Source of the DNA: Octopus sinensis
Taxonomy: Eukaryota
Direction of reading: 5' to 3'
Length of the DNA: 44,352 nucleotides
Assembly: GCF_006345805.1 (NCBI RefSeq)
Contig: NW_021835135.1
Span: 1 to 44,352 of the forward strand
Shown: piece by piece, positions 1-40,715 of the stretch
Layout of the letters: each line of letters opens with the position of its first letter
How positions within the stretch are numbered: position 1 is the stretch's first letter
Position numbers and translations under genes: made by a program
Notes under the pieces: generated by a model
Told to the model about the DNA's origin: nothing
Databases searched by the model: none
The model's input: the letters and a program-made list of their open reading frames with translations, nothing else

Positions 1-3000
1 GCAACGCTGGGCAAAAATGCTTAGCGGTATTTTGTCTGCCGCTACGTTCTACTAGTTCGAATTCCGTCGAGGTCGACTTTGCTTTTCAATCCTTTCAGGG
101 TTGATGAAATAAGGCGGCGAGCTGGCAGAAACGGTAGCACGCCGGGCAACATGCTTAGCGGTATTTTATCTGCCGCTACGTTCTAAGTTCTAATTCCTTC
201 GAGGTCGACTTTGCTTTTCATCCGTTCAGGGTTGATGAAATAAGGCGGCGAGCTGGCAGAACTGTAGCACGCCGGGCAAAATGCTGTAGCGCATTTTTGT
301 CTGCCGCTACGTCTAAGTTTCTAATTATCCGTCGAGGTCGACTTTGCTTTTCATCCTTTCAGGGTTGATGAAATAAGGCGGCGTGCGAGCTGGCAGAAAC
401 GTTAGCACGCTGGCAAAATGCTTAGCGGTATTTTGTCTGCCGCTACGTTCTAAGTTCTAATTCCGTCGAGGTCGACTTTGCTTTTCATCCTTTCAGGGTT
501 GATGAAATAAGCGGGCGAGCTGGCAGAAACGTTAGCACGCCGGGCAAAATGCTTAGCGGTATTTTGTCTTCCGCTACGTTCTAAGTTCTACTTCCGTGAG
601 TCGACTTTGCTTTGTCACATCCTTTAGGGTTGATGAAATAAGGCGGCGAGCTGGCAGAAACGTTAGCACGCCGGGCAAAATGCTTAGCGGTATTTTGTCT
701 GCCGCTACGTTCTAAGTTCTAATTCCGTCGAGGTCGACTTTGCTTTTCATCCTTTAAGGTTGATGAAATAAGGCGGCGAGCTGGCAGAAACGTTAGCACG
801 CCGGCGAATGCTTAGCGGTATTTTGTCTGCCGCTACGTTCTAAGTTCTAATTCCGTCGAGGTCGACTTTGCTTTTCATCCTTTAACGGGTTGATGAAATA
901 AGGCGGCGAGCTGGCAGAAACGTTAGCACGCCGGGCAAAATGCTTAGCGGTATTTTGTCTGCCGCTACGTTCTAATTCTAATTCCGTCGAGGTCGACATT
1001 GCTTTCTTTTCATCTTTTCAGGGTTGATGAAATAAGGCGGCGAGCTGGCAGAAACGGTAGCACGCCGGGCAAAATGCTTAGCGGTATTTTGTCTGCCGCT
1101 ACGTTCTAAGTTCTAATCCGTCGAGGTCGACTTTGCTTTTCATCCTTTCAGGGTTGATGAAATAAGGCGGCGAGCTGGCAGAAACGTTAGCACGCTGGGC
1201 AAAATGCTTACGGTATTTTGTCTGCCGCTACGTTCTAAGTTCTAATTCCGTCGAGGTCGACTTTGCTTTTCATCCTTTCAGGGTTGATGAAATAAGGCGG
1301 CGAGCTGGCAGAAACGTTAGCACGCCGGGCAAAATGCTTAGCGGTATTTTGTCTGCCGCTACGTTCTAAGTTCTAATTCCGTCGAGGTCGACTTTGCTTT
1401 TCATCCTTTCAGGGTTGATGAAATAAGGCGGCGAGCTGGCAGAAACGTTAGCACGCCGGGCAACATGCTTAGCGGTATTTTGTCTGCCGCGACGTTCTAA
1501 TTCTAATTCCGTCGAGGTCGACTTTGCTTTTCATCCTTTCAGGGTTGATGAAATAAGGCGGCGAGCTGGCAGAAACGTTAGCACGCCACGCCGGGCAAAA
1601 TGCTTAGCGGTATTTTGTCTGCCGCTACGTTCTAAGTTCTAATTCCGTCGAGGTCGACTTTGCTTTTCATCCTTTCAGGGTTGATGAAATAAGGCGGGCG
1701 AGCTGGCAGAAACGTTAGCACGCTGGGCAAAATGCTTAGCGGTATTTTGTCTGCCGCTACGTTCTAAGTTCTAATTCCGTCGAGGTCGACTTTGCTTTTC
1801 ATCCTTTCAGGGTTGATGAATAAGGCGGCGAGCTGGCAGAAACGTTAGCACGCCGGGCAAAATGCTTAGCGGTATTTTGTCTGCCGCTACGTTCTAAGTT
1901 CTAATTCCGTCGAGGTCGACTTTGCTTTTCAATCCTTTCAGGGTTGATGAAATAAGGCGGCGAGCTGGCAGAAACGTTAGCACGCTGGCAAAATGCTTAG
2001 CGGTATTTTGTCTGCCGCTACGTTCTAAGTTCTAATTCCGTCGAGGTCGACTTTGCTTTTCATCCTTTCAGGGTTGATGAAATAAGGCGGCGAGCTGGCA
2101 GAAACGTTAGCACGCCGGGCAAAATGCTTAGCGGTATTTTGTCTGCCGCTACGTTCTAAGTTCTAATTCCGTCGAGGTCGACTTTGCTTTTCATCCTTTC
2201 AGGGTTGATGAAATAAGGCGGCGAGCTGGCAGAAACGTTAGCACGCTGGGCAAAATGCTTAGCGGTATTTTGTCTGCCGCTACGTTCTAAGTTCTAATTC
2301 CGTCGAGGTCGACTTTGCTTTTCATCCTTTCAGGTTGATGAAATAAGGCGGCGAGCTGGCAGAAACGTTAGCACGCTGGGCAAAATGCTTAGCGGTATTT
2401 TGTCTGCCGCTACGTTCTAAGTTCTAATTCCGTCGAGGTCGACTTTGCTTTTCATCCTTTCAGGGTTGATGAAATAAGGCGGCGAGCTGGCAGAAACGTT
2501 AGCACGCCGGGCAAAATGCTTAGCGGTATTTTGTCTGCCGCTACGTTCTAAGTTCTAATTCCGTCGAGGTCGACTTTGCTTTTCATCCTTTCAGGGTTGA
2601 TGAAATAAGGCGGCGAGCTGGCAGAAACGTTAGCACGCCGGGCAAAATGCTTAGCGGTATTTTGTCTGCCGCTACGTTCTAAGTTCTAATTCCGTCGAGG
2701 TCGACTTTGCTTTTCATCCTTTCAGGGTTGATGAAATAAGGCGGCGAGCTGGCAGAAACGTTAGCACGCTGGGCAAAATACTTAGCGGTATTTTGTCTGC
2801 CGCTACGTTCTAAGTTCTAATTCCGTCGAGGTCGACTTTGCTTTTCATCCTTTAAGGGTTGATGAAATAAGGCGGCGAGCTGGCAGAAACGTTAGCACGC
2901 CGGGCAAAATGCTTAGCGGTAATTTGTCTGCCGCTACGTTCTAAGTTCTAATTCCGTCGAGGTCGACTTTGCTTTTCATCCTTTCAGGGTTGATGAAATA

Positions 3001-6000
3001 TGGCGGCGAGCTGGCAGAAACGGTAGCACGCCGGAAAAAATGCTTAGCGGTATTTTGTCTGCCGCTACGTTCTAAGTTCTAATTCCGTCGAGGTCGACTT
3101 TGCTTTTCATCCTTTCAGGGTTGATGAAATAAGGCGGCGAGCTGGCAGAAACGGTAGCACGCCGGGCAAAATGCTTAGCGGTATTTTGTCTGCCGCTACG
3201 TTCTAAGTTCTAATTCCGTCGAGGTCGACTTTGCTTTTCATCCTTTCAGGGTTGATGAAATAAGGCGGCGAGCTGGCAGAAACGTTAGCACGCGGGCAAA
3301 ATGCTTAGCGGTATTTTGTCTGCCGCTACGTTCTAAGTTCTAATTCCGTCGAGGTCGACTTTGCTTTTCATCCTTTAAGGGTTGATGAAATAAGGCGGCG
3401 AGCTGGCAGAAACGTTAGCACGCTGGGCAAAATGCTTAGCGGTATTTTGTCTGCCGCTACGTTCTAAGTTCTAATTCCGTCGAGGTCGACTTTGCTTTTC
3501 ATCCTTTAAGGGTTGATGAAATAAGGCGGCGAGCTGGCAGAAACGTTAGCACGCCGGGCAAAATGCTTAGCGGTATTTTGTCTGCCGCTACGTTCTAAGT
3601 TCTAATTCCGTCGAGGTCGACTTTGCTTTTCATCCTTTAAGGGTTGATGAAATAAGGCGGCGAGCTGGCAGAAACGTTAGCACGCTGGGCAAAATGCTTA
3701 GCGGTATTTTGTCTGCCGCTACGTTCTAAGTTCTAATTCCGTCGAGGTCGACATTGCTTTTCATCCTTTAAGGGTTGATGAAATAAGGCGGCGAGCTGGC
3801 AGAAACGTTAGCACGCTGGGCAAAATGCTTAGCGGTATTTTGTCTGCCGCTACGTTCTAAGTTCTAATTCCGTCGAGGTCGACTTTGCTTTTCATCCTTT
3901 CAGGGTTGATGAAATAAGGCGGCGAGCTGGCAGAAACGGTAGCACGCCGGGCAAAATGCTTAGCGGTATTTTATCTGCCGCTACGTTCTAAGTTCTAATT
4001 CCTTCGAGGTCGACTTTGCTTTTCATCCTTTCAGGGTTGATGAAATAAGGCGGCGAGCTGGCAGAAACGTTAGCACGCCGGGCAAAATGCTTAGCGGCAT
4101 TTTGTCTGCCGCTACGTTCTAAGTTCTAATTCCGTCGAGGTCGACTTTGCTTTTCATCCTTTCAGGGTTGATGAAATAAGGCGGCGAGCTGGCAGAAACG
4201 TTAGCACGCTGGGCAAAATGCTTAGCGGTATTTTGTCTGCCGCTACGTTCTAAGTTCTAATTCCGTCGAGGTCGACTTTGCTTTTCATCCTTTCAGGGTT
4301 GATGAAATAAGGCGGCGAGCTGGCAGAAACGTTAGCACGCCGGGCAAAATGCTTAGCGGTATTTTGTCTGCCGCTACGTTCTAAGTTCTAATTCCGTCGA
4401 GGTCGACTTTGCTTTTCATCCTTTAAGGGTTGATGAAATAAGGCGGCGAGCTGGCAGAAACGTTAGCACGCGCGGGCAAAATGCTTAGCGGTATTTTGTC
4501 TGCCGCTACGTTCTAAGTTCTAATTCCGTCGAGGTCGACTTTGCTTTTCATCCTTTAAGGGTTGATGAAATAAGGCGGCGAGCTGGCAGAAACGTTAGCA
4601 CGCCGGGCGAAATGCTTAGCGGTATTTTGTCTGCCGCTACGTTCTAAGTTCTAATTCCGTCGAGGTCGACTTTGCTTTTCATCCTTTACGGGTTGATGAA
4701 ATAAGGCGGCGAGCTGGCAGAAACGTTAGCACGCCGGGCAAAATGCTTAGCGGTATTTTGTCTGCCGCTACGTTCTAAATTCTAATTCCGTCGAGGTCGA
4801 CATTGCTTTTCATCCTTTCAGGGTTGATGAAATAAGGCGGCGAGCTGGCAGAAACGGTAGCACGCCGGGCAAAATGCTTAGCGGTATTTTGTCTGCCGCT
4901 ACGTTCTAAGTTCTAATTCCGTCGAGGTCGACTTTGCTTTTCATCCTTTCAGGGTTGATGAAATAAGGCGGCGAGCTGGCAGAAACGTTAGCACGCTGGG
5001 CAAAATGCTTAGCGGTATTTTTTCTGCCGCTACGTTCTAAGTTCTAATTCCGTCGAGGTCGACTTTGCTTTTCATCCTTTAAGGGTTGATGAAATAAGGC
5101 GGCGAGCTGGCAGAAACGTTAGCACGCCGGGCAAAATGCTTAGCGGTATTTTGTCTGCCGCTACGTTCTAAGTTCTAATTCCGTCGAGGTCGACTTTGCT
5201 TTTCATCCTTTAAGGGTTGATGAAATAAGGCGGCGAGCTGGCAGAAACGTTAGCACGCCGGGCAAAATGCTTCAGCGGTATTTTGTCTGCCGCTACGTTC
5301 TAAGTTCTAATTCCGTCGAGGTCGACTTTGCTTTTCATCCTTTCAGGGTTGATGAAATAAGGCGGCGAGCTGGCAGAAACGTTAGCACGCCGGGCAAATT
5401 GCTTAGCGGTATTTTGTCTGCCGCCACGTTCTAAGTTCTAATTCCGTCGAGGTCGACTTTGCTTTTCATCCTTTAAGGGTTGATAAAATAAGGCGGCGAG
5501 CTGGCAGAAACGTTAGCACGCTGGCAAAATGCTTAGCGGTATTTTGTCTGCCGTACGTTCTAAGTTCTAATTCCTCGAGGTCGACTTTGCTTTTCATCCT
5601 TTAAGGGTTGATGAAATAAGGCGGCGAGCTGCAGAAACGTTAGCACGCCCGGAAAAATGCTTAACAGTTTGTCTTGTCTGCCGCTACGTTCTAAGTTCTA
5701 ATTCCGTCGAGGTCTCGACTTTGCTTTTCATCCTTTCAGGATTGATGAAATAAGGCGGCGAGCTGGCAGAAACGTTAGCCAGGCCGGGCGAAATGCTTAG
5801 TGGTATTTTGTCTGCCGCTACGTTCTAAGTTCTTAATTCCGTCGAGGTCGACTTTGCTTTTCATCCTTTCAGGGTTGATGAAATAAGGCGGCGAGCTGGC
5901 AGAAACGTTAGCACGCCGGGCAAAATGCTTAGCGGTATTTTGTCTGCCGCTACTTTCTAAGTTCTAATTCCGTCGATGTCGACTTTGCTTTTCATCCTTT

Positions 6001-9000
6001 CAGGATGATGAAATAAGGCGGCGAGCTGGCAGAAACGTTAGCACGCCGGGCAAAATGCTTAGCGGCATTTTGTCTGCCGCTACGTTCTAAGTTCTAATTC
6101 CGTCGAGGTCGACTTTGCTTTTCATCCTTTCAGATTGATGAAATTAGGCGGCGAGCTGGCAAAGAAAGACGTAGCACGCCGGGCGAAATGCTTAGCGGTA
6201 TTTTGTCTGCCGCTACGTTCTAAGTTCTAATTCCGTCGAGGTCGACTTTGCTTTTCATCCTTTCAGGGTTGATGAAATAAGGCGGCGGCGAGCTGGCAGA
6301 AACTTTAGCACGCCAGGCAAAATGCTTAGCGGTATTTTGTCTGCCGCTACGTTCTAAGTTCTAATTCCGTCGAGGTCGACTTTGCTTTTCATCCTTTTAG
6401 GGTTGATGAAATAAGGCGGCGAGCTGGCAGAAACGTTAGCACGCCGGGCGAAATGCTTAGCGGTATTTTGTCTGCCGCTACGTTCTAAGTTCTAATTCCG
6501 TCGAGGTCGAATTTCCTTTTCATCCTTTAAGTGTTAATGAAATAAGGCGTCGAGCTGGCAGAAACGTTAGCACGCCGGGCGAAATGCTTAGCGGTATTTT
6601 GTCTGCCGCTACGTTCTAAGTTCTAATTCCGTCGAGGTCGACTTTGCTTTTCATCCTTTCAGGGTTGATGAAATAAGGCGGCGAGCTGGCAGAAACGTTA
6701 GCACGCCGGGCAAAATGCTTAGCGGTATTTTGTCTGCCGCTACGTTCTAAGTTCTAATTCCGTCGAGGTCGACATTGCTTTCATCCTTTAAGGGTTGATG
6801 AAATAAGGCGGCGAGCTGGCAGAAACGTTAGCACGATGGGCAAAATGCTTAGCGGTATTTTGTCTGCCGCTACGTTCTAAGTTCTAATTCCGTCGAGGTC
6901 GACTTGCTTTTCATCCTTTCAGGGTGATGAAATAAGGCGGCGAGCTGGCAGAAACGGTAGCACGCCGGGCAAAATGCTTAGCGGTATTTTGTCTGCCGCT
7001 ACGTTCTAAGTTCTAATTCCGTCGAGGTCGACTTTGCTTTTCATCCTTTTAGGGTTGATGAAATAAGGCGGCGAGTGGCAGAAACGTTAGCACGATGGCA
7101 AAATGCTTAGCGGTATTTTGTCTGCCGCTAGGTTCTAAGTTCTAATTCCGTCGAGGTCGACTTTGCTTTCATCCTTTAAGGGTTGATGAAATAAGGCGGC
7201 GAGCTGGCAGAGAAACGTTAGCACGCCGGGCAAAATGCTTAGCGGTATTTTGTCTGCCGCTACGTTCTAAGGTCTAATTCCGTCGAGGTCGACTTTGCTT
7301 TTCATCCTTTAAGGGTTGATGAAATAAGGCGGCGAGCTGGCAGAAACGTTAGCACGCTGGGCAAAATGCTTAGCGGTATTTTGTCTGCCGCTACGTTCTA
7401 AGTTCTAATTCCGTCGAGGTCGACTTTGCTTTTCATCCTTAAGGGTTGATGAAATAAGGCGGCGAGCTGGCAGAAACGTTAGCACGCCGGAAAAATGCTT
7501 AGCAGTATTTTGTCTGCCGCTACGTTCTAAGTTCTAATTCCGTCGAGGTCGACTTTGCTTTTCATCCTTTCAGGATTGATGAAATAAGGCGGCGAGCTGG
7601 CAGAAACGTTAGCAGGCCGGGCGAAATGCTTAGCGGTATTTTGTCTGCCGCTACGTTCTAAGTTCTAATTCCGTCGAGGTCGACTTTGCTTTTCATCCTT
7701 TCAGGGTTGATGAAATAAGGCGGCGAGCTGGCAGAAACGTTAGCACGCCGGGCAAAATGCTTAGCGGTATTTTGTCTGCCGCTACTTTCTAAGTTCTAAT
7801 TCCGTCGATGTCGACTTTGCTTTTCATCCTTTCAGGATGGATGAAATAAGGCGGCGAGCTGGCAGAAACGTTAGCACGCCGGAAAAATGCTTAGCAGTAT
7901 TTTGTCTGCCGCTACGTCTAAGTTCTAATTCCGTCGAGGTCGACTTTGCTTTTCATCCTTTCAGGATTGATGAAATAAGGCGGCGAGCTGGCAGAAACGT
8001 TAGCAGGCCGGGCGAAATGCTTAGCGGTATTTTGTCTGCCGCTAACGTTCTAAGTCTAATTCCGTCGAGGTCGACTTGCTTTTCATCCTTTCAGGTTGAT
8101 GAAATAAGGCGGCGAGCTGGCAGAAACGTTAGCACGCCGGGCGAAATGCTTAGCGGTATTTTGTCTGCCGCTACGTTCTAAGTTCTAATTCCGTCGAGGT
8201 CGACTTTGCTTTTCATCCTTTCAGGGTTGATGAAATAAGGCGGCGAGCTGGCAGAAACGTTAGCACGCCGGCGAAATGCTTAGCGGTAATTTTGTCTGCC
8301 GCTACGTTCTAAGTTCTAATTCCGTCGAGGTCGACTTTGCTTTTCATCCTTTGAGGGTTGATGAAATAAGGCGGCGAGCTGGCAGAAACGTTAGCACGCC
8401 GGGCGAAATGCTTAGCGGTATTTTGTCTGCCGCTACGTTCTAAGTTCTAATTCCGTCGAGGTCGACTTTGCTTTTCATCCTTTAAGGGTTGATGAAATAA
8501 GGCGGCGCCTGGCAGAAACTTAGCACGGCACGCCGGCGAAATGCTTAGCGGTATTTTGTCTGCCGCTACGTTCTAAGTTCTAATTCCGTCGAGGTCGACT
8601 TTGCTTTTCATCCTTCAGGGTTGATGAAATAAGGCGGCGAGCTGGCAGAAACGTTAGCACGCCGGGCGAAATGCTTAGCGGTATTTTGTCTGCCGCTACG
8701 TTCTAAGTTCTAATTCCGTCGAGGTCGACTTTGCTTTTCATCCTTTCAGGGTTGATGAAATAAGGCGGCGAGCTGGCAGAAACGTTAGCACGCCGGGCGA
8801 AATGCTTAGCGGTATTTTGTCTGCCGCTACGTTCTAAGTTCTAATCCGTCGAGGTCGACTTTGCTTTTCATCCTTTCAGGGTTGATGAAATAAGGCGGCG
8901 AGCTGGCAGAAACGTTAGCACGCCGGGCGAAATGCTTAGCGGTATTTTGTCTGCCGCTACGTTCTAAGTTCTAATAATTCCGTCGAGGTCGACTTTGCTT

Positions 9001-12000
9001 TTCATCCTTTCAGGGTTGATGAAATAAGGCGGCGAGCTGGCAGAAACGATAGCACGCCGGGCAAAATGCTTAGCGGTATTTTGTCTGCCGCTACGTTCTA
9101 AGTTCTAATTCCGTCGAGGTCGACTTTGCTTTTCATCCTTTAAGGGTTGATGAAATAAGGCGGCGAGCTGGCAGAAACGTTAGCACGCCGGGCGAAATGC
9201 TTAGCGGTATTTTGTCTGCCGCTACGTTCTAAGTTCTAATTCCGTCGAGGTCGACTTTGCTTTTCATCCTTTAAGGGTTGATGAAATAAGGCGGCGAGCT
9301 GGCAGAAACGTTAGCACGCCGGGCAAAATGCTTAGCGGTATTTTGTCTGCCGCTACGTTCTAAGTTCTAATTCCGTCGAAGTCGACTTTGCTTTTCATCC
9401 TTTAAGGGTTGATGAAATAATGCGGCGAGCTGGCAGAAACGTTAGCACGCCGGGAAAAATGCTTAGCAGTATTTTGTCTGCCGCTACGTTCTAAGTTCTA
9501 ATTCCGTCGAGGTCGACTTTGCTTTTCATCCTTTCAGGATTGATGAAATAAGGCGGCGAGCTGGCAGAAACGTTAGCAGGCCGGGCGAAATGCTTAGCGG
9601 TATTTTGTCTGCCGCTACGTTCTAAGTTCTAATTCCGTCGAGGTCGACATTGCTTTTCATCCTTTCAGGGTTGATGAAATAAGGCGGCGAGCTGGCAGAA
9701 ACGTTAGCACGCCGGGCGAAATGCTTAGCGCGGTATTTTGTCTGCCGCTACGTTCTAAGTTCTAATTCCGTCGAGGTCGACTTTGCTTTTCATCCTTTCA
9801 GGGTTGATGAAATAAGGCGGCGAGCTGGCAGAAACGTTAGCACGCCGGGCGAAATGCTTAGCGGTATTTTGTCTGCCGCTACGTTCTAAGTTCTAATTCC
9901 GTCGAGGTCGACTTTGCTTTTCATCCTTTCAGGTTGATGAAATAAGGCGGCGAGCTGGCAGAAACGTTAGCACGCCGGGCGAAATGCTTAGCGGTATTTT
10001 GTCTGCCGCTACGTTCTAAGTTCTAATTCCGTCGAGGTCGACTTTGCTTTTCATCCTTTAAGGGTTGATGAAATAAGGCGGCGACCTGGCAGAACGTTAG
10101 CGTTAGCACGCCGGGCGAAATGCTTAGCGGTATTTTGTCTGCCGCTACGTTCTAAGTTCTAATTCCGTCGAGGTCGACTTTGCTTTTCATCCTTTCAGGG
10201 TTGATGAAATAAGGCGGCGAGCTGGCAGAAACGTTAGCACGCCGGCGAAATGCTTAGCGGTATTTTGTCTGCCGCTACGTTCTAAGTTCTAATTCCGTCG
10301 AGGTCGACTTTGCTTTTCATCCTTTCAGGGTTGATGAAATAAGGCGGCGAGCTGGCAGAACACGTTAGCACGCCGGGCGAAATGCTTAGCGGTATTTTGT
10401 CTGCCGCTACGTCTAAAGTTCTAATTCCGTCGAGGTCGACTTTGCTTTTCATCCTTTCAGGGTTGATGAAATAAGGCGGCGAGCTGGCAGAAACGATAGC
10501 ACGCCGGGCAAAATGCTTAGCGGTATTTTGTCTGCCGCTACGTTCTAAGTTCTAATTCCGTCGAGGTCGACTTTGCTTTTCATCCTTTAAGGGTTGATGA
10601 AATAAGGCGGCGAGCTGGCAGAAACGTTAGCACGCCGGGCGAAATGCTTAGCGGTATTTTGTCTGCCGCTACGTTCTAAGCTCTAATTCCGTCGAGGTCG
10701 ACTTTGCTTTTCATCCTTTAAGGGTTGATGAAATAAGGCGGCGAGCTGGCAGAAACGTTAGCACGCCGGGCGAAATGCTTAGCGGTATTTTGTCTGCCGC
10801 TACGTTCTAAGCTCTAATTCCGTCGAGGTCGACTTTGCTTTTCATCCTTTCAGGGTTGATGAAATAAGGCGGCGAGCTGGCAGAAACGTTAGCACGCCGG
10901 GCGAAATGCTTAGCGGTATTTTGTCTGCCGCTACGTTCTAAGTTCTAATTCCGTCGAGGTCGACTTTGCTTTTCATCCTTTCAGGGTTGATGAAATAAGG
11001 CGGCGAGCTGGCAGAAACGTTAGCACGCCGGGCAAAATGCTTAGCGGTATTTTGTCTGCCGCTACTTTCTAAGTTCTAATTCCGTCGAGGTCGACTTTGC
11101 TTTTCATCCTTTAACGGTTGATGAAATAAGGCGGCGAGCTGGCAGAAACGTTAGCACGCCGGGCGAAATGCTTAGCGGTATTTTGTCTGCCGCTACGTTC
11201 TAAGTTCTAATTCCGTCGAGGTCGACTTTGCTTTTCATCCTTTCAGGGTTGATGAAATAAGGCGGCGAGCGAGCTGGCAGAGAAACGTTAGCACGCCGGG
11301 CGAAATGCTTAGCGGTATTTTGTCTGCGCTACGTTCTAAGTTCTAATTCCGCCGAGGTCGACTTTGCTTTTCATCCTTGAGGGTTGATGAAATAAGGCGG
11401 CGAGCTGGCAGAAACGTTAGCACGCCGGGCGAAATGCTTAGCGGTATTTTGTCTGCCGCTACGTTCTAAGTTCTAATTCCGTCGAGGTCGACTTTGCTTT
11501 TCATCCTTTAAGGGTTGATGAAATAATGCGGCGAGCTGGCAGAAACGTTAGCACGCCGGGCGAAATGCTTAGCGGTATTTTGTCTGCCGCTACGTTCTAA
11601 GTTCTAATTCCGTCGAGGTCGACTTTGCTTTTCATCTTTCAGGGTTGATGAAATAAGGCGGCGAGCTGGCAGAAACGTTAGCACGCCGGGCGAAATGCTT
11701 AGCGGTATTTTGTCTGCGCTACGTTCTAAGTTCTAATTCCGTCGAGGTCGACTTTGCTTTTCATCCTTTCAGGGTTGATGAAATAAGGCGGCGAGCTGGC
11801 AGAAGAAACGTTAGCACGCCGGGCAAAATGCTTAGCGGTATTTTGTCTGCCGCTACGTTCTAAGTTCTAATTCCGTCGAGGTCGACTTTGCTTTTCATCC
11901 TTTCAGGGTTGATGAAATAAGGCGGCGAGCTGGCAGAAACGTTAGCACGCCGGGAAAAATGCTTAGCGGTATTTTGTCTGCCGCTACGTTCTAAGTTCTA

Positions 12001-15000
12001 ATTCCGTCGAGGTCGACTTTGCTTTTCATCCTTTCAGGGTTGATGAAATAAGGCGGTGAGCTGGCAGAAACGTTAGCACGCCGGGCAAAATGCTTAGCGG
12101 TATTTTGTCTGCCGCTACGTTCTATGTTCTAATTCCGTCGAGGTCGACTTTGCTTTTATCCTTTAAGGGTTGATGAAATAAGGCGGCGAGCTGGCAGAAA
12201 CGTTAGGCACGCCGGGCGAAATGCTTAGCGGTATTTTGTCTGCCGCTACGTTCTAAGTTCTAATTCCGTCGTCGAGGTCGACTTTGCTTTTCATTCATCC
12301 TTTCAGGGTTGATGAATAAGGCGGCGAGCTGGCAGAAACTTAGCACGCTGGGCAAAATGCTTAGCGGTATTTTGTCTGCCGCTACGTTCTAAGTTCTAAT
12401 TCCGTCGAGGTCGACTTTGCTTTTCATCCTTTAAGGGTTGATGAAATAAGGCGGCGAGCTGGCAGAAACGTTAGCACGCCGGGAAAAATGCTTAGCAGTA
12501 TTTTGTCTGCCGCTACGTTCTAAGTTCTAATTCCGTCGAGGTCGACTTTGCTTTTCATCCTTTCAGGATTGATGAAATAAGGCGGCGAGCTGGCAGAAAC
12601 GTTAGCAGGCCGGGCGAAATGCTTAGCGGTATTTTGTCTGCCGCTACGTTCTAAGTTCTAATTCCGTCGAGGTCGACTTTGCTTTTCATCCTTTCAGGGT
12701 TGATGAAATAAGGCGGCGAGCTGGCAGAAACGTTAGCACGCCGGGCGCGAAATGCTTAGCGGTATTTTGTCTGCCGCTACGTTCTAAGTTCTAATTCCGT
12801 CGAGGTCGACTTTGCTTTTCATCCTTCAGGGTTGATGAAATAAGGCGGCGAGCTGGCAGAAACGTTAGCACGCCGGGCGAAATGCTTAGCGGTATTTTGT
12901 CTGCCGCTACGTTCTAAGTTCTAATTCCGTCGAGTCGTCGACTTTGCTTTTCATCCTTTCAGGGTTGATGAAATAAGGCGGCGAGCTGGCAGAAACGTTA
13001 GCGCGCCGGGCAAAATGCTTAGCGGTATTTTGTCTGCCGCTACGTTCTAAGTTCTAATTCCGTCGAGGTCGACTTGCTTTTCATCCTTTCAGGGTGATGA
13101 TGAATAGGCGGCGAGCTGGCGCAGAAACGTTAGCACGCCGGGAAAAATGCTTAGCGGTATTTTGTCTGCCGCTACGTTCTAAGTTCTAATTCCGTCGAGG
13201 TCGACTTTGCTTTTCATCCTTTCAGGGTTGATGAAATAAGGCGGTGAGCTGGCAGAAGAAACGTTAGCACGCCGGGCAAAATGCTTAGCGGTATTTTGTC
13301 TGCCGCTACGTTCTATGTTCTAATTCCGTCGAGGTCGATTTTGCTTTTAATCCATTCAGGATTGATGAAATAAGCGGCGAGCTGGCAGAAACGTTAGCAC
13401 GACGGGCGAAATGCTTAGCGGTATTTTGTCTGCCGCTACCTTCTAAGTTCTAATTCCGTCGAGGTCGACTTTGCTTTTCATCCTTTAAGGGTTGATGAAA
13501 TAAGGCGGCGAGCTGGCAGAAACGTTAGCACGCCGGGCGAAATGCTTAGCGGTATTTTGTCTGCCGCTACGTTCTAAGTTCTAATTCCGTCGAGGTCGAC
13601 TTTGCTTTTCATCCTTTCAGGGTTGATGAAATAAGGCGGCGAGCTGGCAGAAACTTTAGCACGCCTGGCAAAAATGCTTAGCGGTATTTTTTCTGCCGCT
13701 ACGTTCTAAGTTCTAATTCCGTCGAGGTCGACTTTGCTTTTCATCCTTTAAGGGTTGATGAAATAAGGCGGCGAGCTGGCAGAAACGTTAGCACGCCGGG
13801 CGAAATGCTTAGCGGTATTTTGTCTGCCGCTACGTTCCAAGTTCTAATTCCGTCGAGGTCGACTTTGCTTTTCATCCTTTAAGGGTTGATGAAATAAGGC
13901 GGCGAGCTGGCAGAAACGTTAGCACGCCGGGCGAAATGCTTAGCGGTATTTTGTCTGCCGCTAGGTTCTAAGTTCTAATTCCGTCGAGGTCGACTTTGCT
14001 TTTCATCCTTTCAGGGTTGATGAAATAAGGCGGCGAGCTGGCAGAAACTTTTGCACGCCGGGCAAAATGCTTAGCGGTATTTTGTCTGCCGCTACGTTCT
14101 AAGTTCTAATTCCGTCGAGGTCGACTTTGCTTTTCATCCTTTAAGGGTTGATGAAATAAGGCGGCGAGCTGGCAGAAACGTTAGCACGCCGGGCGAAATG
14201 CTTAGCGGTATTTTGTCTGCCGCTACGTTCTAAGTTCTAATTCCGTCGAGGTCGACTTTGCTTTTCATCCTTTCAGGGTTGATGAAATAAGGCGGCGAGC
14301 TGGCAGAAACGTTAGCACGCCGGGCGAAATGCTTAGCGGTATTTTGTCTGCCGCTACGTTCTAAGTTCTAATTCCGTCGAGGTCGACTTTGCTTTTCATC
14401 CTTTCAGGGTTGATGAAATAAGGCGGCGAGCTGGCAGAAACGTTAGCACGCCGGGCGAAATGCTTAGCGGTATTTTGTCTGCCGCTACGTTCTAAGTTCT
14501 AATTCCGTCGAGGTCGACTTTGCTTTTCATCGTTTCAGGATTGATGAAATAAGGCGGCGAGCTGGCAGAAACGTTAGCACGCCGGGAAAAATGCTTAGCG
14601 GTATTTTGTCTGCCGCTACGTTCTAGTTCTAATTCCGTCGAGGTCGACTTTGCTTTTCATCCTTTAAGGTTGATGAAATAAGGCGGCGAGCTGGCAGAAA
14701 CGTTAGCACGCCGGGCAAAATGCTTAGCGGTATTTTGTCTGCCGCTACGTTCTAAGTTCTAATTCCGTCGAGGTCGACTTTGCTTTTCATCCTTTCAGGG
14801 TTGATGAAATAAGGCGGCGAGCTGGCAGAAACGTTAGCACGCCGGGAAAAATGCTTAGCGGTATTTTGTCTGCCGCTACGTTCTAAGTTCTAATTCCGTC
14901 GAGGTCGACTTTGCTTTTCATCCTTTCAGGGTTGATGAAATAAGGCGGCGAGCTGGCAGAAACGTTAGCACGCCGGGCAAAATGCTTAGCGGTATTTTGT

Positions 15001-15070
15001 CTGCCGCTACGTTCTAAGTTCTAATTCCGTCGAGGTCGACTTTGCTTTTCATCCTTTCGGGGTCGATAAA
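1..15070 (+). repeat. Satellite array of a 131-bp unit derived from a SINE 5' head (~115 copies; runs off the window start)
   Basis: Unit taaggcggcgagctggcagaaacgttagcacgccgggc(a/g)aaatgcttagcggtattttgtctgccgctacgttctaagttctaattccgtcgaggtcgactttgcttttcatccttt(c/a)agggttgatgaaa. Period 131 (e.g. starts at 13501 and 13632). Matches the first ~130 bp of dispersed SINE copies at 34145 (+) and 36332 (-). Confidence 0.98.
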
Positions 15071-15140
15071 ATAAGTACCAGTTACGGACTGGGGTCAATA
15101 TAATCGACTTAATCTGTTTGTCTGTCCTTGTTTGTCCTCA
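14941..15140 (+). mobile_element. tRNA-derived SINE forming the last unit of the satellite
   Basis: The last unit continues into the normal SINE body (ggggtcgataaaataagtaccagttacggactggggtc...tttgtctgtccttgtttgtcc), as in the copy at 34145-34380. Confidence 0.93.
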
Positions 15141-17741: not shown

Positions 17742-17992
17742 TTGGTGTATGCAGTTGAACTAGCATTAAATTTTAACCTCTATGTATGTATCATACATAA
17801 CGTATATACACAGTTGACAAGCAAAATATTGCGGTTTTCGTCCTAGTTAAGAATCTGTTATGCACATCTTGTGTTAACAACACAATCTGTATTGGAGAGA
17901 GGCGAATTGTTCTGGCAGCGACTAGCGAGGACGCCAGATGGATCTTGACATCTTGGAGTATGTCTACCTCCCCAATATAAGGGAAGTCACAG

Positions 17993-18614
17993 AAGAATGC
18001 ATGGACAATTTCATAGGGATGTTGAAGATAAGGCCTCCCCAATATAACGGAAGTCACAGATTTCGTCTGTGTATCTGGTTACAAGTACACACTATTGACA
18101 AGGCCTCGGAAGGTTGAATGCATTCGGAGTTTCTTACTCGCCGCTACCGGGACACCTTTTCTTCTTATTCCTATATACACTGTATTTTAAACACTTATTT
18201 CAAATATGTTCAAATATTGTAGAAAGTGTTAAAACAGTTATCAATGTATCATACTTAACGTATGCACACTATTTAAAGTTAAGATACTGTGTTTTTTGTC
18301 CGAGATAATTCTTATTGACGTGCTGTGTTTAACCCATTGACTCCCAAGCCCGTTTTGCGCTATCTTAATAATAAGTCGTGAGAAGTCACCAATGACTGCT
18401 ATGGTAAGCAAAATTTTTAAATTACAGTGTATATAGGAATGAGAAGAAAAGGTGTCCCGGTAGCGGCGAGTAAGAAACTCCGAATGCAGCCAACCTTCCG
18501 AGGCCTTGTCAATAGTGTGTACTTGTAACCACATACACAGACGAAATCTGTGACTTCCGTTATATTGGGGAGGTCTTATCTTCAACATCCCTATGAAATT
18601 GTCCATGCATTCTT
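17993..18614. repeat. ~200-bp inverted repeat (17993-18191 / 18416-18614) with 224-bp spacer
   Basis: aagaatgcatggacaatttc...tatacactgtattttaaa is the near-identical reverse complement of tttaaattacagtgtata...gaaattgtccatgcattctt. Confidence 0.93.
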
Positions 18615-19135
18615 TTCTTTCTCCACTTATTTTTAGTTTCATTCATTTTCAAATGCTTGTACAGTGCTTTAACTTTGCAATCTTCCATCTTACATAAGCC
18701 TGACCTTCTTACTTCCAATAATAGCGGTTCTGTGGATTTTTTTACAAACCATGCTCTAATGATGAGTTTGCATCCAATTAGTCCTCTTTCCCTTCTTTTT
18801 CTTGGTACATACAGTCTGTCTGTGTCACTTTTTGAGTGGAGTATCTCATATCTAGTCAGCAACTTCCTTGTCTTTTTATCTAAACTGTTTAGTTCGCCTG
18901 CTGCCCATACGATTAACCCTGCCCCATATCTAACGCGTGAAACCGCCCAGGAGTTAATAGCTTCCATCTTATTCCGTCTGTTTAATTTCGACTTAAGGAT
19001 CAGTGTCAGTCTGCGCAAGTACTCCACCTTAAATTTTTCTGTCATTTCTTTCTCCATCAATTTATCCATTTCCAATATCCCCAAGTTCTTATAGCCCGTC
19101 TCTTCTATTTGCTTCGTGACCTCCCCCGGCGGTAC
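18575..19135 (-). pseudogene. R4/Dong-like (RLE) non-LTR retrotransposon fragment, post-RT region
   Basis: ORF 18560-19084: KLNRRNKMEAINSWAVSRVRYGAG, HSKSDTDRLYVPRKRRERGL (HPKxDxDRLYxPRxxGGRGL motif), WRKKRMHGQFHR. Confidence 0.85.
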
Positions 19136-32362: not shown

Positions 32363-32875
32363 TAGAAATATTGAATTTCTAAATGTCTCAACGAGACATG
32401 AGCAGTGGTGGGGCGATAGAGTGGTTGTATAAAGTCAACATAACGTGACGGTCCCATAGAGGGAATTACACCACCGCTATATAGCCCTAGGAAGCATCGA
32501 CGCTTCTTGTCGGCTTTGACACATTCCTGCGCCCTTATATTTGCAAAGGGAATTTAGAAATTCAATATTTCTAATTACGGTGACCAGTGAATAAATTTCA
32601 CTGTAAATAGATATATTCGCAAGGGCTTGGAAAGTATCACTGCTAGCGGGGACACGCTACCCTGAACTGATGACGGGCAATACCCAGAAACATGCATGTC
32701 CCCAGGTTGCTAGTTCTAGCTGGTGGGGGGTACTTGCCTCCCCTTTGCAAATATAAGGACACAGGAATGTGTCAAAGCCGACAGGAAGCGTCGATGCTTC
32801 CCAGGGCTATATAGCAGTGGTGTGGTTCCCTTTAAGGGACCGTCACGTTATGTTGACTTTATACAACCATTCTAT
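32361..32875 (+). mobile_element. Hammerhead-containing non-coding element with inverted partial copy (retrozyme/Penelope pLTR-like)
   Basis: Arms 32416-32550 and 32741-32875 are reverse complements; 32361-32384 is the reverse complement of 32552-32574. HHR lies in the spacer. Second family copy at 39493-39650. Confidence 0.8.
32661..32706 (+). ncRNA. Type-I hammerhead ribozyme (C3-G8), GUC cleavage site after 32700
   Basis: cctgaa-CTGATGA(32667)-c ggg caata ccc a-GAAA-catgcatg-TC-cccagg. Palindromic stem III; stem I cctg/cagg with two proximal mismatches. Confidence 0.78.
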
Positions 32876-34144: not shown

Positions 34145-34380
34145 TAAGGCGGCGAGCTGGCAGAATGGTTAGCACGCCGGGCGAAATGCGTAGCCGTATT
34201 TCGTCTGCCGTTACGTTGTGAGTTCAAATTCCGCCGAGGTTGACTTTGCCTTTCATCCTTTCAGGGTGAATAAATTAAGTACCAGTTATGCACTGGGGTC
34301 GATGTAATCGACTTACTCCGTTTGTCTGTCCTTGTTTGTCCCTTCTATGTTTAGCCCCTTGTGGGTAATAAAGAAACACA
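34145..34380 (+). mobile_element. Full-length tRNA-derived SINE (satellite-source family)
   Basis: taaggcggcgagctggcagaatggttagcacg...gagttcaaattcc (B-box)...gtgggtaataaagaaa. Confidence 0.93.
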
Positions 34381-35647: not shown

Positions 35648-35978
35648 CATTTTATATAAAAAAAGGCTTAGTAAAATAAATTACTTTGCCGCATACTGAA
35701 CTCATTAGAAATAGCAGCTAAAAAACTTTTTTAAAGCTATTTCTAATACTTAAAGAAAATCTCTCTCATATAGTGTTTGCTTAATTCAACTCACAAAAGT
35801 TTGGGGGTAAGGACATCGATACCCCAAAACTTTTGTGAGTTGAATTAAGCAACACTATATATGAGAGAGATTTTCTTTAAGTATTAGAAATAGCTTTAAA
35901 AAAGTTTTTTAGCTGCTATTTCTAATGAGTTCAGTATGCGGCAAAGTAATTTATTTTACTAAGCCCTTTTATATAATG
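35648..35978. repeat. Near-perfect ~160-bp-arm palindrome with 10-bp loop
   Basis: 35648-35809 is the reverse complement of 35820-35978; flanked by (TA)n on the left, with a further (TA)n at ~36076-36101. Confidence 0.95.
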
Positions 35979-36100: not shown

Positions 36101-36332
36101 ATTTCTTTACTGCCCACAAAGGGCTAAACATAGAGGGGACAAACAAGGACAGACAAAGGGATTATGTCGATTACATTGACTCAGTGCGAAACTGGTACTT
36201 TTATTTATCGATGTAGAAAGGATAAAAGGCAAAGTCGACCTCGGCGGAATTTGAACTCAGAACGTAACGACAGACGAAATACCGCTAAGCATTTCGCCCG
36301 GCACGCTATCGTTTCTGCCAGCTCACCGCCTT
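36101..36332 (-). mobile_element. Full-length tRNA-derived SINE (satellite-source family)
   Basis: Reverse-complement homolog of 34145-34380. Probable TSD gcacaaaa(a)cgcggtatat at 35588 and 36333. Confidence 0.93.
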
Positions 36333-36499: not shown

Positions 36500-36935
36500 C
36501 ATCAAAGTCGACTTTGGCTGAATTTGAACTCAGAACGTAAATACGGCGGAAATGTCGCTAAGCATTCTGCCAATTCGCCGCCTTATCAGTATATATTATA
36601 CAGATTTCAAATTTTGGCACAAGACCAAAAATGCGGGGGGGGGGGCGTAAATCGATTACATCGACCCCAGTCTTCAGCTGGTACTTATTTTAACAACCCC
36701 AAAAGAATGAAAGGCAAAGTCGATATTGGTTTCAAATCTTGGCAAAAGGCCTGTAGGTTTGGAGAAGGGGCCACGTCGATTACATCGACCCCAGTACTCA
36801 ACTGATACTCATTTTATCGACCCCGAAAGAATGAAAGGTAAAGTCAACCCCGGCAGAATTTGAACTCAGAACATACAGACGGACGAAATGCCGCTAAGCG
36901 TTTTGACCGGCATGCTAACGATTCTGCTAGCTCTC
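36500..36935 (-). mobile_element. Cluster of nested/partial SINE copies
   Basis: Repeated cgattacatcgaccccagt...gaatgaaagg(c/t)aaagtc and tttgaactcagaac motifs. Confidence 0.82.
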
Positions 36936-37055
36936 CAAATATTGCTATATAAAATCCTGTACATTCTGTTGTGTCTGGGGAGAGTCATTTTCTTTTTGTG
37001 CCTTATAATTTAACACACTCACCGGTAAAATTTCCACTTATTTTTTATTTTTATC

Positions 37056-37482: not shown

Positions 37483-37985
37483 CTAGCAGTATCGCCCGGC
37501 GTTGCTCGGGTTTGTAAGGGAAATAACTATATAAGTATTTTTAGTGAGTTATAGCAAAAAAATAGCAAAAAATGCATTAAAAATGGAATAAAAAATGATG
37601 GTAATTTTTTTTTTAAATCGTTGACTCATCGTAGACATTTTTAGAGAGTTAATTTCCTTATATAATAGCGAAAAATGCATTAAAATGGAATAAAAAATGA
37701 TGGTAATTTTTTTTTTAACCGTTGACTCATCGTAGACATTTTTAGAGAGTTACTTCCCTTATATAATAGCGAAAAATGCATTAAAATGGAATAAAAATGA
37801 TGTTAAATTATTTTTAAAATCGTAGACTCATCGTAGACGCGCGCTAATAGCCAGACGGGCTCGATATGAATCACGACTATAAGATACCCGAATTTGGTTA
37901 AACTGCACCGCAAAATGTGGGAGTAGTTAGGAATCTAAATCGAAGGGGACAGACACTCGCACAACTACAGTTTTATATATATAGA
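37483..37985 (-). mobile_element. Non-autonomous Helitron, copy 1, with ~100-bp internal tandem repeats
   Basis: Minus strand starts TC(tatatatataaaac), has the subterminal hairpin cccgagcaacgccggg and ends CTAG followed by T. Confidence 0.9.
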
Positions 37986-38510
37986 CTAGCAGTATCGCCC
38001 GGCGTTGCTCGGGTTTGTAAGGGAAATAACCATAAAGCATTTTTTAGAGATTTTACTTACTTCCTTTATAGATGCCAATTCGAGCTTTCTTAGCCATTTC
38101 TGTTTTGGTGTCTTCAAGCCATGAATTCGTTGTTCTAAAAGAACGCTGGTCTCCTTGACAAACGCTTTACGGCGTTGATTTCCTACACTCCTTACTTCCC
38201 CTTCCCCAGTTTCACGAGGAGGAAGAAAGGGGAGAAGCAAACACAGGTGCAGGTGTTTGACCATGGACGCCAACTCCGCCGCCATCGACACCACGAAAAA
38301 TTATGCATTAAAATGGAATAAAAAATGTTAAATTATTTTTTAAATCGTAGACTCATCGTAGACGCGCGCTAATAGCCAGACGGGCTCAATATGAATCACG
38401 ACTATAAGATACCCGAATTTGGTTTAACTGCACCGCAAAATGTGGGAGGAGTTAGGAATCTAAATCGTAGGAGACAGACACTCACACAACTACAGTTTTA
38501 TATATATAGA
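37986..38510 (-). mobile_element. Non-autonomous Helitron, copy 2, with a different internal segment
   Basis: Same termini as copy 1; preceded by A on the minus strand (A|T target). Confidence 0.9.
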
Positions 38511-38511
38511 T

Positions 38512-38790
38512 TTACTTGTGGCAGTCATTGGACTGCAGCCATCGTGCAGCGCCACCTGGAAGGGTTAAATCGATCAAATCAGCCGGTTTTTGTTTTTTTT
38601 TTTTGTTTTTAAGTTTGGTACTTATTCTATCAGTGGTTTTTTTTTTTGGCGGGGGGCTTTTTTTTTGCCGAACCGATAAGTTATGCGAACATAAACAAAC
38701 TAACACTGATTGTCCAGCTATGCCTGAGGACAAAGACAAAAACGATGACACATATACTTATACTTCATACATACATACATACATACGTAC
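38512..38790 (-). mobile_element. SINE 3' half
   Basis: cagtcattggactgcagccat...tacttattctatc...gccgaaccgataagt, as in the 27003 family. Confidence 0.78.
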
Positions 38791-38919
38791 ATATATCTAT
38801 CTATATATATATATATATATATAATTAGTAATAATTTTCCCCTTTTGCCTACGTGGTTTGTTTTCAAGTGCTTTGGTTTTTCTGGGAACTCCCTTTTAAG
38901 TAGAAAAGAATAGCTAGGA

Positions 38920-39005
38920 TTTTGACTGCTATTTCTAAACTTCGGTGTGTGGTGAAGCTAATCGTTGCTGAACCCTAATTATATAGTATATACTATATAT
39001 ATATA

Positions 39006-39067
<62 letters not shown>

Positions 39068-39156
39068 ATATATATATATATATAATATACTATATAATTA
39101 TGGTTCAGCAACGATTAGCTTCACCACACACCGAAGTTTAGAAATAGCAGTCAAAA
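38920..39156. repeat. ~70-bp inverted repeat flanking a (TA)n tract
   Basis: ttttgactgctatttctaaacttcggtgtgtggtgaagctaatcgttgctgaacc vs ggttcagcaacgattagcttcaccacacaccgaagtttagaaatagcagtcaaaa. Confidence 0.93.
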
Positions 39157-39174
39157 CTTCGTGCTGCACGAAGC

Positions 39175-39225
39175 TTTGTCAGTGAACAGGTCGCGGTCTC
39201 AAAGCGACGAAAATGTTTTGACAAA
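39175..39225 (+). ncRNA. Putative type-I hammerhead ribozyme with G3-C8 swapped core
   Basis: tttgtca-GTGAACA-g-gtcgc ggtctcaaa gcgac-GAAA-a tg t-TT-tgacaaa. Perfect 7-bp stem I and 5-bp stem II. Confidence 0.72.
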
Positions 39226-39492
39226 TTTATATGTTGAAGTGAATCTAACGGTTTTGTGTTTTTCTTAAATGGCTTATAAACACCTTCCACGCTGCAATTA
39301 TTTAGTAAATAAGAAAAATGTAATTTCTCATATTACGAAATATTATGGCAGTTATCACTTTATTTTCACGTATTAAAATGATTTAAAATTGATTTACAGT
39401 CAAGTTTAGCAACAGTGGAATAATAATGGGTGAAAGATGGTTGATCAGTATTAAATGGTTTGGCTTATTTGAATATTTCATTTAATTAGCAA

Positions 39493-39650
39493 TCAGGAAA
39501 TGTGCCAAGGCCGACAGGAAGCATTGCTGCTTCCTAGGGTTAAATAGCGGTGGTGTGATTCCCTTCATGGGACTGTCACATTAAGTTGACAGTATACAAC
39601 TACTCTATCGTACTGCTACTTCTTATATCACTCTGAGATATTTAGAAATG
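39493..39650 (+). mobile_element. Diverged partial copy of the 32.4-32.9 kb hammerhead element
   Basis: caggaaatgtgccaaggccgacaggaagc...gtatacaactactctatcg...gagatatttagaaat. Confidence 0.85.
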
Positions 39651-39669
39651 TAATACTCTCTCTCTCTCT

Positions 39670-40062
39670 TTTTACTCTTTTACTTGTTTCAGTCATTTGA
39701 CTGCGGCCATGCTGGAGCACCGCCTTAAGTCGAGCAAATCGACCCCGGGACTTATTCTTTGTAAGCCCAGTACTTATTCTATCGGTCTCTTTTGCCGAAC
39801 CGCTAAGTGACGGGGACGTAAAAACACCTCATCGGTTGTCAAGCAATGCTAGGGGACAACACAGACACACAAACATATACACACACACTTATATAATATA
39901 CATATATACGAACAGCTTCTTTCAGTTTCCGTCTACCAAATCCACTCACAAGGCATTGGTCGGCCCGGGCTATAGCAGAAGACACTTGCCCAAGATGCCA
40001 CACAGTGGGACTGAACCATGTGGTTGGTTAGCAAGCTACTTACCACACAGCCACTCCTGCGC
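39670..40062 (-). mobile_element. Full-length tRNA-derived SINE
   Basis: Same family as 27003-27577. Confidence 0.92.
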
Positions 40063-40279
40063 CTATTTCAATTTTATAATCTTGTGTCCTGGCTTCCCAC
40101 AGTATCAACAATTTATTCCAACCATCTCTTGCTCTTTCTTTTTCAAACAGCTTTCTCTTTTATGTCCGACCTTCTCGCAGTACCAACAACTCTCATTAAA
40201 TTTCCTGCTTCACGTACTTTCCCCTTCTTTGCTTTGAATTCGGAACTGGAGTCCACCTGAAATCTTCCTGTGCCAGACC

Positions 40280-40715
40280 TTACATACAACTCAAATTCCA
40301 GAGCTCAAGCCAATGCCTCTTGTTTAGTATTTGACTGTGCTTGTTTCACTTGAACTTTGAGCTTTGCATTGCTCAAAGCGTCGACAAACTGGTCTTTCAG
40401 AAGAAGAGCCAAAAGTTCCTGGGCAAGCTGTTGTGGTGATTCTCTGCTAGCCCTTACACGGGTCCGAAATCGTACCTTGTACACTCCACCCAGGTACATA
40501 GTGCTATATCTTCTCCCTCCCTAACGCTTCAGCTAGTGAAGAATTCTGTCCTCTTCAGACAACTGGCTCCGTTCCTCTAGTGCAGCACCCTTTAGACTAG
40601 TAGCAAGCTGAACTGCTCTTTGCCCCTCGTCCCATCCATCCTGGTTAACCAGTAGCTCAAACTGGACACAGTAGATCTCCCATGACATTTTGCCGTCAAA
40701 TTCTTAAAGCTGCTT
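40280..40715 (-). pseudogene. LTR-retrotransposon (Ty3/Gypsy-like) gag fragment
   Basis: FDGKMSWEIYCVQFELLVNQDGWDEGQRAVQLATSLKGAALE and LLKDQFVDALSNAKLKVQVKQAQ resemble a retrotransposon capsid pattern. Confidence 0.72.

Follow-up and report, generated by a model that had tools for sequence, protein, structure and literature searches.

Can a natural hammerhead ribozyme carry the core pair at positions 3 and 8 in reversed order, as G3-C8, and does a mobile family use such a core? The question is raised by a 44,352-nucleotide stretch of Octopus sinensis DNA (assembly GCF_006345805.1, contig NW_021835135.1), which as a whole is referred to here as the window. Near its right end lies a hammerhead-like motif preceded by a hairpin and an arm mirrored across a (TA)n tract.

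A hammerhead motif with positions 3 and 8 exchanged

Positions 39175-39225 of the forward strand form a minimal type I hammerhead motif with G3-C8 in place of C3-G8, made up of the following parts:

39175-39181 and 39219-39225, + strand: stem I, 7 bp
39182-39188, + strand: core box GTGAACA, with G3 at 39182 and C8 at 39187
39189, + strand: extra G after the core box
39190-39194 and 39204-39208, + strand: stem II, 5 bp, closed by a 9-nt loop
39209-39212, + strand: GAAA
39212-39217, + strand: stem III, a self-complementary 6-mer (putative dimer interface), with U16.1 at 39217
39218, + strand: U17; predicted cleavage site at 39218..39219, after U17, from the hammerhead consensus

The core is ordered G3-U-G-A-A-C8-A9, extra G, stem II, GAAA, palindromic stem III and U17. 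U4 G5 A6, A9, G12 A13 A14, A15.1-U16.1 and H17 of the hammerhead consensus are all present, as is G10.1-C11.1, and stems I and II flank the core. The motif departs from the strict consensus at positions 3 and 8, for which that consensus demands C and G; its own G and C there are complementary to each other. The original prediction had named this exchange as the only core change, between a 7-bp stem I and a 5-bp stem II, and every part was found at its predicted position. It had also called the UUU cleavage triplet suboptimal. The triplet is indeed UUU; its use has a precedent in the Penelope hammerheads of Fig. S3 of PMC4209133, which shows UUU in Crassostrea and an extra G in Nasonia.

A descriptor allowing any Watson-Crick pair between positions 3 and 8 matched once in the non-satellite part of the window (15101-44352), and in none of 200 resampled versions. 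The Rfam hammerhead gave no match at E values up to 10 within 37500-40500. Given that stem III is a self-complementary 6-mer, the motif belongs to the dimer type. This stem reads AATATT in 107 of 117 family copies; the window copy has a G at 39215 where most have A, a letter found in 3 of the 117, and with this G its core box can mispair into a rod.

The window also contains a 131-bp satellite at 4-15075 (about 115 copies, 95% identity), with related single units at 34146-34312, 36200-36332 and 36775-36936. Further long inverted repeats lie at 17974-18633, 32416-32875 and 35655-35975, with arms of 118-223 bp that are 93-98% complementary and 85-214 bp apart.

The exchanged core is the common state of a genomic repeat family

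In a DNA search of the 2.7-Gb genome, most of the family matches listed (40 scored of 2,808 candidates) were 88-95% identical over 39152-39303; we refer to this family as family A. An 18-base pattern holding G3 and C8 has 6,011 exact matches in the genome and its reversed control has none, which bears out the proposal that the exchanged core is the state of a mobile family. Single-site variants of the pattern number 364 at position 8, 202 at position 3 and 171 at position 7, and G3-C8 accounts for 5,840 of 6,406 matches (91%) among the single-site classes at positions 3 and 8. We also drew a sample of 30 copies, chosen by the sequence 3' of the cut site and not by the core. It comprised 24 copies with G3-C8, one with G3/G8, one with G3/T8, four without a readable core and none with C3-G8. 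Of the 26 cores that could be read, 24 are G3-C8. At each core place, every alternative letter stayed below 5% in contigs (contigs only, 80% likeness) from four public runs bearing the labels of four organisms.

Copies in which C8 has become G number about 153 (42 in the first 100 of 364), roughly fivefold the strand-equivalent G3-to-C class of about 32 (16 in the first 100 of 202), whereas the remaining substitution types at positions 3 and 8 match between strands. The C8-to-G copies are spread over subfamilies. We find no support for a replicating G3/G8 intermediate lineage: the 42 such copies are dispersed over all subfamilies. In an older subfamily, G8 occurs in 2 of the first 100 of 1,288 copies.

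Loop II differs between subfamilies while the core and stems stay constant. The flank 3' of the core is about as conserved as the core itself, so constancy within the family is by itself little proof. Across subfamilies with endonucleases about 13% apart, the core letters other than 3 and 8, both stems and the palindrome are all kept. G3 and C8 could in principle be held in place by some other, overlapping constraint, such as a short upstream frame from the 5' end of the repeat, a promoter or a splice element, their complementarity being incidental. An ATG-started frame of 19-22 codons does cross the core in several subfamilies, reading it as Val-Asn, and the 5' ends of copies accumulate at its start. 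Yet in a young subfamily (L107-type) this frame is shifted and stops before a core that is still G3-C8, and no reading frame across the core is kept in all subfamilies. Such a constraint would also leave the complementarity unexplained, and we regard it as very unlikely.

The repeat belongs to a Penelope-like retrotransposon

A conserved upstream element with 380 exact matches provided the route from the repeat to coding sequence, leading to GIY-YIG and reverse transcriptase (RT) frames. The longest ORF has 1,042 open codons, with DKSG and YVDD, a C-X3-C-X2-C linker and a GIY-YIG-like end. Its protein has 61 homologs at an E value of 1e-30 or better, one of which, labelled Octopus vulgaris, has an endonuclease sequence in common with family B, a related family described below. 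In Pfam the ORF itself matched no family at E 0.01; among aligned homologs RVT_1 matched weakly in 4 of 33 and GIY-YIG in 3 of 33, and a profile search returned one solved RT at E 2e-4. The form of the cysteine linker points to Neptune or Nematis, an assignment made by the linker and not by a reference RT tree.

The motif accompanies this coding sequence. At 25 of 30 loci picked by the endonuclease it lies in sense orientation 784-1133 bp after the ORF stop, with G3 and C8 throughout; of the five loci that lack it, one had a flank of just 187 bp. Among 20 more diverged endonuclease loci it was found at 10, nine with G3-C8 and one with G3/G8. At locus L117, which represents the window's own subfamily (87% endonuclease identity), the repeat is linked to the GIY-YIG ORF by a related 3' UTR, and four loci (L109-L112) have the layout inverted repeat, truncated ORF, repeat. 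The GIY-YIG ORF of L064 was tried as a partner of family A and rejected: it belongs to family B, and only 1 of its 30 loci carries a family A repeat, as a nested insertion.

Copy structure was read from 45 copies at 40 loci taken in chromosome order. A short 3' end was reached in 38 and a further tail of about 58 nt in 21, and the upstream element was kept in 3. Hallmarks of Penelope elements (PMC11167929, PMC8557442) include two fixed ends and an optional tail, insertion at AT-rich targets, and inverted copies. We are almost certain that the repeat is the pseudo-LTR (pLTR) of a Penelope-like element. A 5' pLTR running into the ORF was absent from six long family A loci and three family B loci.

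The conserved upstream element with 380 exact matches lies at L117:1300-1326. It is branch-point-like and pyrimidine-rich, and its terminal YAG directly precedes the 5' start that solo copies have in common; in many of these copies a G replaces the pyrimidine. It could be a splice acceptor, the first exon then being very short; alternatively, it could be an initiator, the G being copied from the cap.

The window copy is a solo pLTR at an inverted junction

Around the motif, the window has the following arrangement:

38920..38979, + strand: left arm of an inverted repeat in host DNA about the (TA)n tract, outside the element family; 59 of 60 positions identical to reversed 39097-39156
38980..39096, unstranded: (TA)n tract, the customary insertion target of family A, whose ends adjoin (TA)n at many loci
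39097..39156, + strand: copy of the left arm in inverted orientation; the final 5 bases are shared with an inverted pLTR remnant (microhomology)
39152..39178, unstranded: palindromic junction containing the hairpin 39157-39173; inverted pLTR remnant, head-to-head with the sense copy, with the same centre in L003, L013, L017 and others
39166..39299 (wider limits 39152-39299), + strand: solo pLTR of a Penelope-like element, with the short 3' end and no 58-nt tail, from alignment to L008, L016 and L219; 89-95% identical to most matches in the genome
39269..39298, + strand: likely first ten ORF codons, MAYKHLPRCN, ended by the short 3' end; they are similar to the start that follows the hammerhead in families B and C

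No copy was found that connects the MAYKHLPRCN start to a long ORF. The window pLTR has a 5-bp deletion after stem I. In 17 of the 45 sampled copies an inverted copy lies directly upstream, and in L003, L013 and L017 the centre of the hairpin joins long inverted copies; in the window the inverted copy is reduced to 13 bases, 5 of which overlap the host-DNA inverted duplicate. The hairpin forms only where an inverted copy joins, and its candidacy as a fixed RNA element was dropped. The mirror arms continue into AT-rich sequence, and none of the scored candidates of the genome DNA search included a family match covering the mirrored arm. As a family feature the mirror was likewise rejected, (TA)n-centred mirrors occurring at 2 of 163 tracts near copies, one of them the window, vs 2 of 458 far from copies (p = 0.28). 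The mirrored arm and the (TA)n tract are not part of the repeat family. The hairpin and mirrored arm of the original prediction are both real, the arms agreeing at 59 of 60 positions, but they are by-products of insertion and not parts of a ribozyme.

The arrangement in the window could be accounted for by fold-back synthesis at the nicked (TA)n and a subsequent template switch. At L199 (tract 256-298), it is the tail of the element that recurs in mirror image across the adjoining (TA)n, in a similar way to the host arm of the window, a hint of fold-back synthesis at the target.

Among the copies, many form long palindromes about the hairpin, as would be expected if the motif were a chance look-alike within a MITE or fold-back element bounded by the hairpin and mirrored arms. 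However, these palindromes consist of pLTRs paired in inverted orientation, as documented for Penelope elements (PMC8557442), the repeat follows an RT-endonuclease ORF, sister families have a canonical core at the same place, and the motif descriptor matched none of the 200 resamplings. A chance resemblance of this kind is hardly credible. The window copy, with its stem III change that favours misfolding, is best seen as a dead by-product of the Penelope-like family and would be of little importance alone.

Sister families place the exchange on a single branch

Relaxing positions 3 and 8 together gave 64 matches, and of 10 that were retrieved, 7 are members of other families, in which the stems are the same and the core is C3-G8 or U3-G8. 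A canonical-core pattern has 191 matches in the genome. Two sister families were characterised. Family B (L133-L162 and L263-L265, for example L263:6371-6410), picked by protein, has C3-G8 in 36 of 38 copies; family C has C3-G8 in 18 of 20, these copies being picked by a pattern that holds Y3/G8. Stem II shows a compensatory change between families (GTCGC/GCGAC vs GTCAC/GTGAC), and stem III has different letters in each that are still self-complementary or nearly so. Position 17 is U almost throughout family A and mostly C in family C.

Family B is young and has long intact frames. Its core reads C3-U-G-A-U-G8-C9, the conserved A9 being C in 37 of 38 copies; this A9C core would be a dead ribozyme or, alternatively, another natural variant of the core.

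For the C-terminal region, a tree was built from 27 rows (10 from family A, 3 from B, 4 from C and 10 database homologs) and rooted at the midpoint. Family A forms a clade (100/99) that is sister to B+C (100/100), and the three families group together (96/95). Given C3-G8 in sister families of the same layout, and an exchange that falls on one branch of the tree, G3-C8 is a derived, family-wide covariation. It appears to have arisen once, on the branch to family A, and it has lasted through several changes of loop II. A single event is not statistical covariation; yet both changes hit the partners of one pair and nothing else in the core.

Related motifs occur more widely. Seven loci (L067, L069, L073, L076, L173, L175 and L177) represent related pLTR families of greater age, whose stems are the same and whose cores are mostly U3-G8, L073 having A3. 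The minus strand of L021 has, about 1,170 bases from the start of that strand, a hammerhead with canonical C3-G8 and a loop II of 41 nt; it follows a different GIY-YIG frame and belongs to another Penelope family.

Does the exchanged motif cut?

The 5' ends of copies give no sign of cutting. One of 30 copies begins at the predicted cut, with no pile-up there, and this single copy is a stem I microhomology junction; 26 of the 30 extend at least 41 nt upstream of the cut, with a mode of 53-61 nt. Ends so far upstream match the published use of uncleaved RNA as template. Folding predictions also count against cutting. Stem III is made of A-U pairs only, and the predicted energy is -0.2 kcal/mol for the active 6-bp duplex vs -3.8 for a competing 10-bp duplex that would bury A13, A14 and U17. 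In the predicted MFE structure of L002, G3 wobble-pairs with U17. The fixation of A9C in family B further indicates that a perfect core is not required for success in this clade and that cores can drift.

In the Penelope hammerhead of PMC11167929, an engineered C3G/G8C double mutant gave partial rescue and cleavage needed protein; rescue by the double mutant is also described in the review PMC8495972. PMC11167929 further reports that cleavage is not needed for insertion, catalytic mutants being without effect on insertion in vitro. A G3-C8 variant is said to be less active with C17 than with G17 (PMC3884650, as data not shown there). The U17 of family A fits a co-adaptation with G3 that would avoid this G3-C17 trap.

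Several of these points are what would be expected if the element were the same and its hammerhead catalytically dead or irrelevant, the fold acting as a structural or protein-binding signal and the exchange being a chance double change carried by a successful lineage. The missing 5'-end footprint at the cut site, A9C fixed in a young family, a weak stem III with a longer duplex in competition, and insertion in vitro that is unaffected by catalytic mutants (PMC11167929) would all follow. Such a history does not sit well with a core that has only two changes, complementary and exactly on the partners of the active-core pair. Nor does it account for the upkeep of the rest of the core, the stems and the palindrome across the endonuclease divergence noted above, or for G3/G8 copies that are dispersed and form no lineage, the older subfamily having 2 among its first 100. 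We consider a dead or irrelevant hammerhead possible but unlikely. Measurable cleavage by the family form we judge about equally likely to be present or absent; if present, it is predicted to be slow or weak.

The explanation that we favour, with some reserve, is that the window holds a decayed solo pLTR of a Penelope-like element, in whose family G3-C8 likely restores the 3-8 pair; cleavage after U17 would then be slow and would require a dimer or the help of protein. The observations behind it are the motif, the family, the site downstream of an RT and GIY-YIG ORF, the pair of fixed 3' ends, the junctions between inverted copies, the (TA)n targets and the C3-G8 of the sisters. The exchange probably passed through a mismatched 3-8 state. 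Since insertion does not need cleavage, we propose, this state was tolerated, and the exchange was then kept because a paired fold is useful. Where two copies stood in one tandem transcript, their palindromic stems III would pair with each other, and uncleaved RNA would be the source of most insertions. That family A has a natural and active purine-pyrimidine exchange, fixed in a successful retroelement lineage and with a co-adapted U17, is a stronger claim, which we would put at slightly less than an even chance.

Comparison with known hammerheads and Penelope clades

Hammerheads in Penelope pLTRs are already known, as are natural U3-A8 (PMC3088659, PMC4209133) and U3-G8 (PMC4209133). The octopus motif resembles the Penelope pLTR hammerheads of Cervera and de la Pena 2014 (PMC4209133) in its type I order, the extra nucleotide after A9, G10.1-C11.1, a short palindromic stem III, a U-rich flank and its position in the pLTR, and the elements share many solo copies and close opposite-strand pairs. 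In contrast to the G3 of family A, all 56 motifs listed there have C3 or U3 (C3-G8, U3-A8 or U3-G8), with no purine at position 3. Natural 3-8 covariation was described by Perreault et al. 2011 (PMC3088659); there it takes the form U3-A8, which keeps the pyrimidine-purine order, whereas family A has purine-pyrimidine.

Anolis Poseidon PAc (Frangieh et al. 2024, PMC11167929) has its hammerhead just before or at the ORF start, and two fixed 3' ends within the ORF start that give an optional tail; its targets are AT-rich and uncleaved RNA is the main template, all points that we list as common with family A. Unlike in family A, C3G/G8C was engineered there, the tail is quoted as 30-40 nt against about 58 nt, and the ORF of family A has the cysteine linker of Neptune/Nematis. 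These EN+ clades (Craig et al. 2021, PMC8557442) share with family A an RT followed by a C-terminal GIY-YIG, a CX2-5CxxC linker, inverted 5'-truncated copies, a tail at one end and microsatellite targeting.

What appears to be new is that a natural G3-C8 core is shared by a whole family of Penelope pLTR hammerheads. In the literature searched we found G3-C8 only as engineered mutants, which does not establish that a natural one is absent from print, and the accessible portions of PMC6765202, PMC11014351, PMC6155905, PMC3376415, PMC1636495, PMC7151607, PMC10085705 and bioRxiv 10.64898/2026.07.22.740005 hold nothing decisive on the matter.

Significance

The role of hammerheads in Penelope elements is debated, with RNA processing, a structural role and a passenger state all under discussion (PMC8557442, PMC11167929). 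The octopus genome offers a natural series in one place, with C3-G8 in family C, G3-C8 in family A and A9C in family B, and a comparison of cleavage across the three would be a direct test of selection on catalysis. Published descriptors demand C3/G8 or U3/A8 and would thus miss thousands of such motifs per genome. If the exchange is active, it would be evolutionary proof of selection for active-core geometry in Penelope hammerheads, and it would mean that searches based on CUGANGA overlook a whole class of genomic ribozymes.
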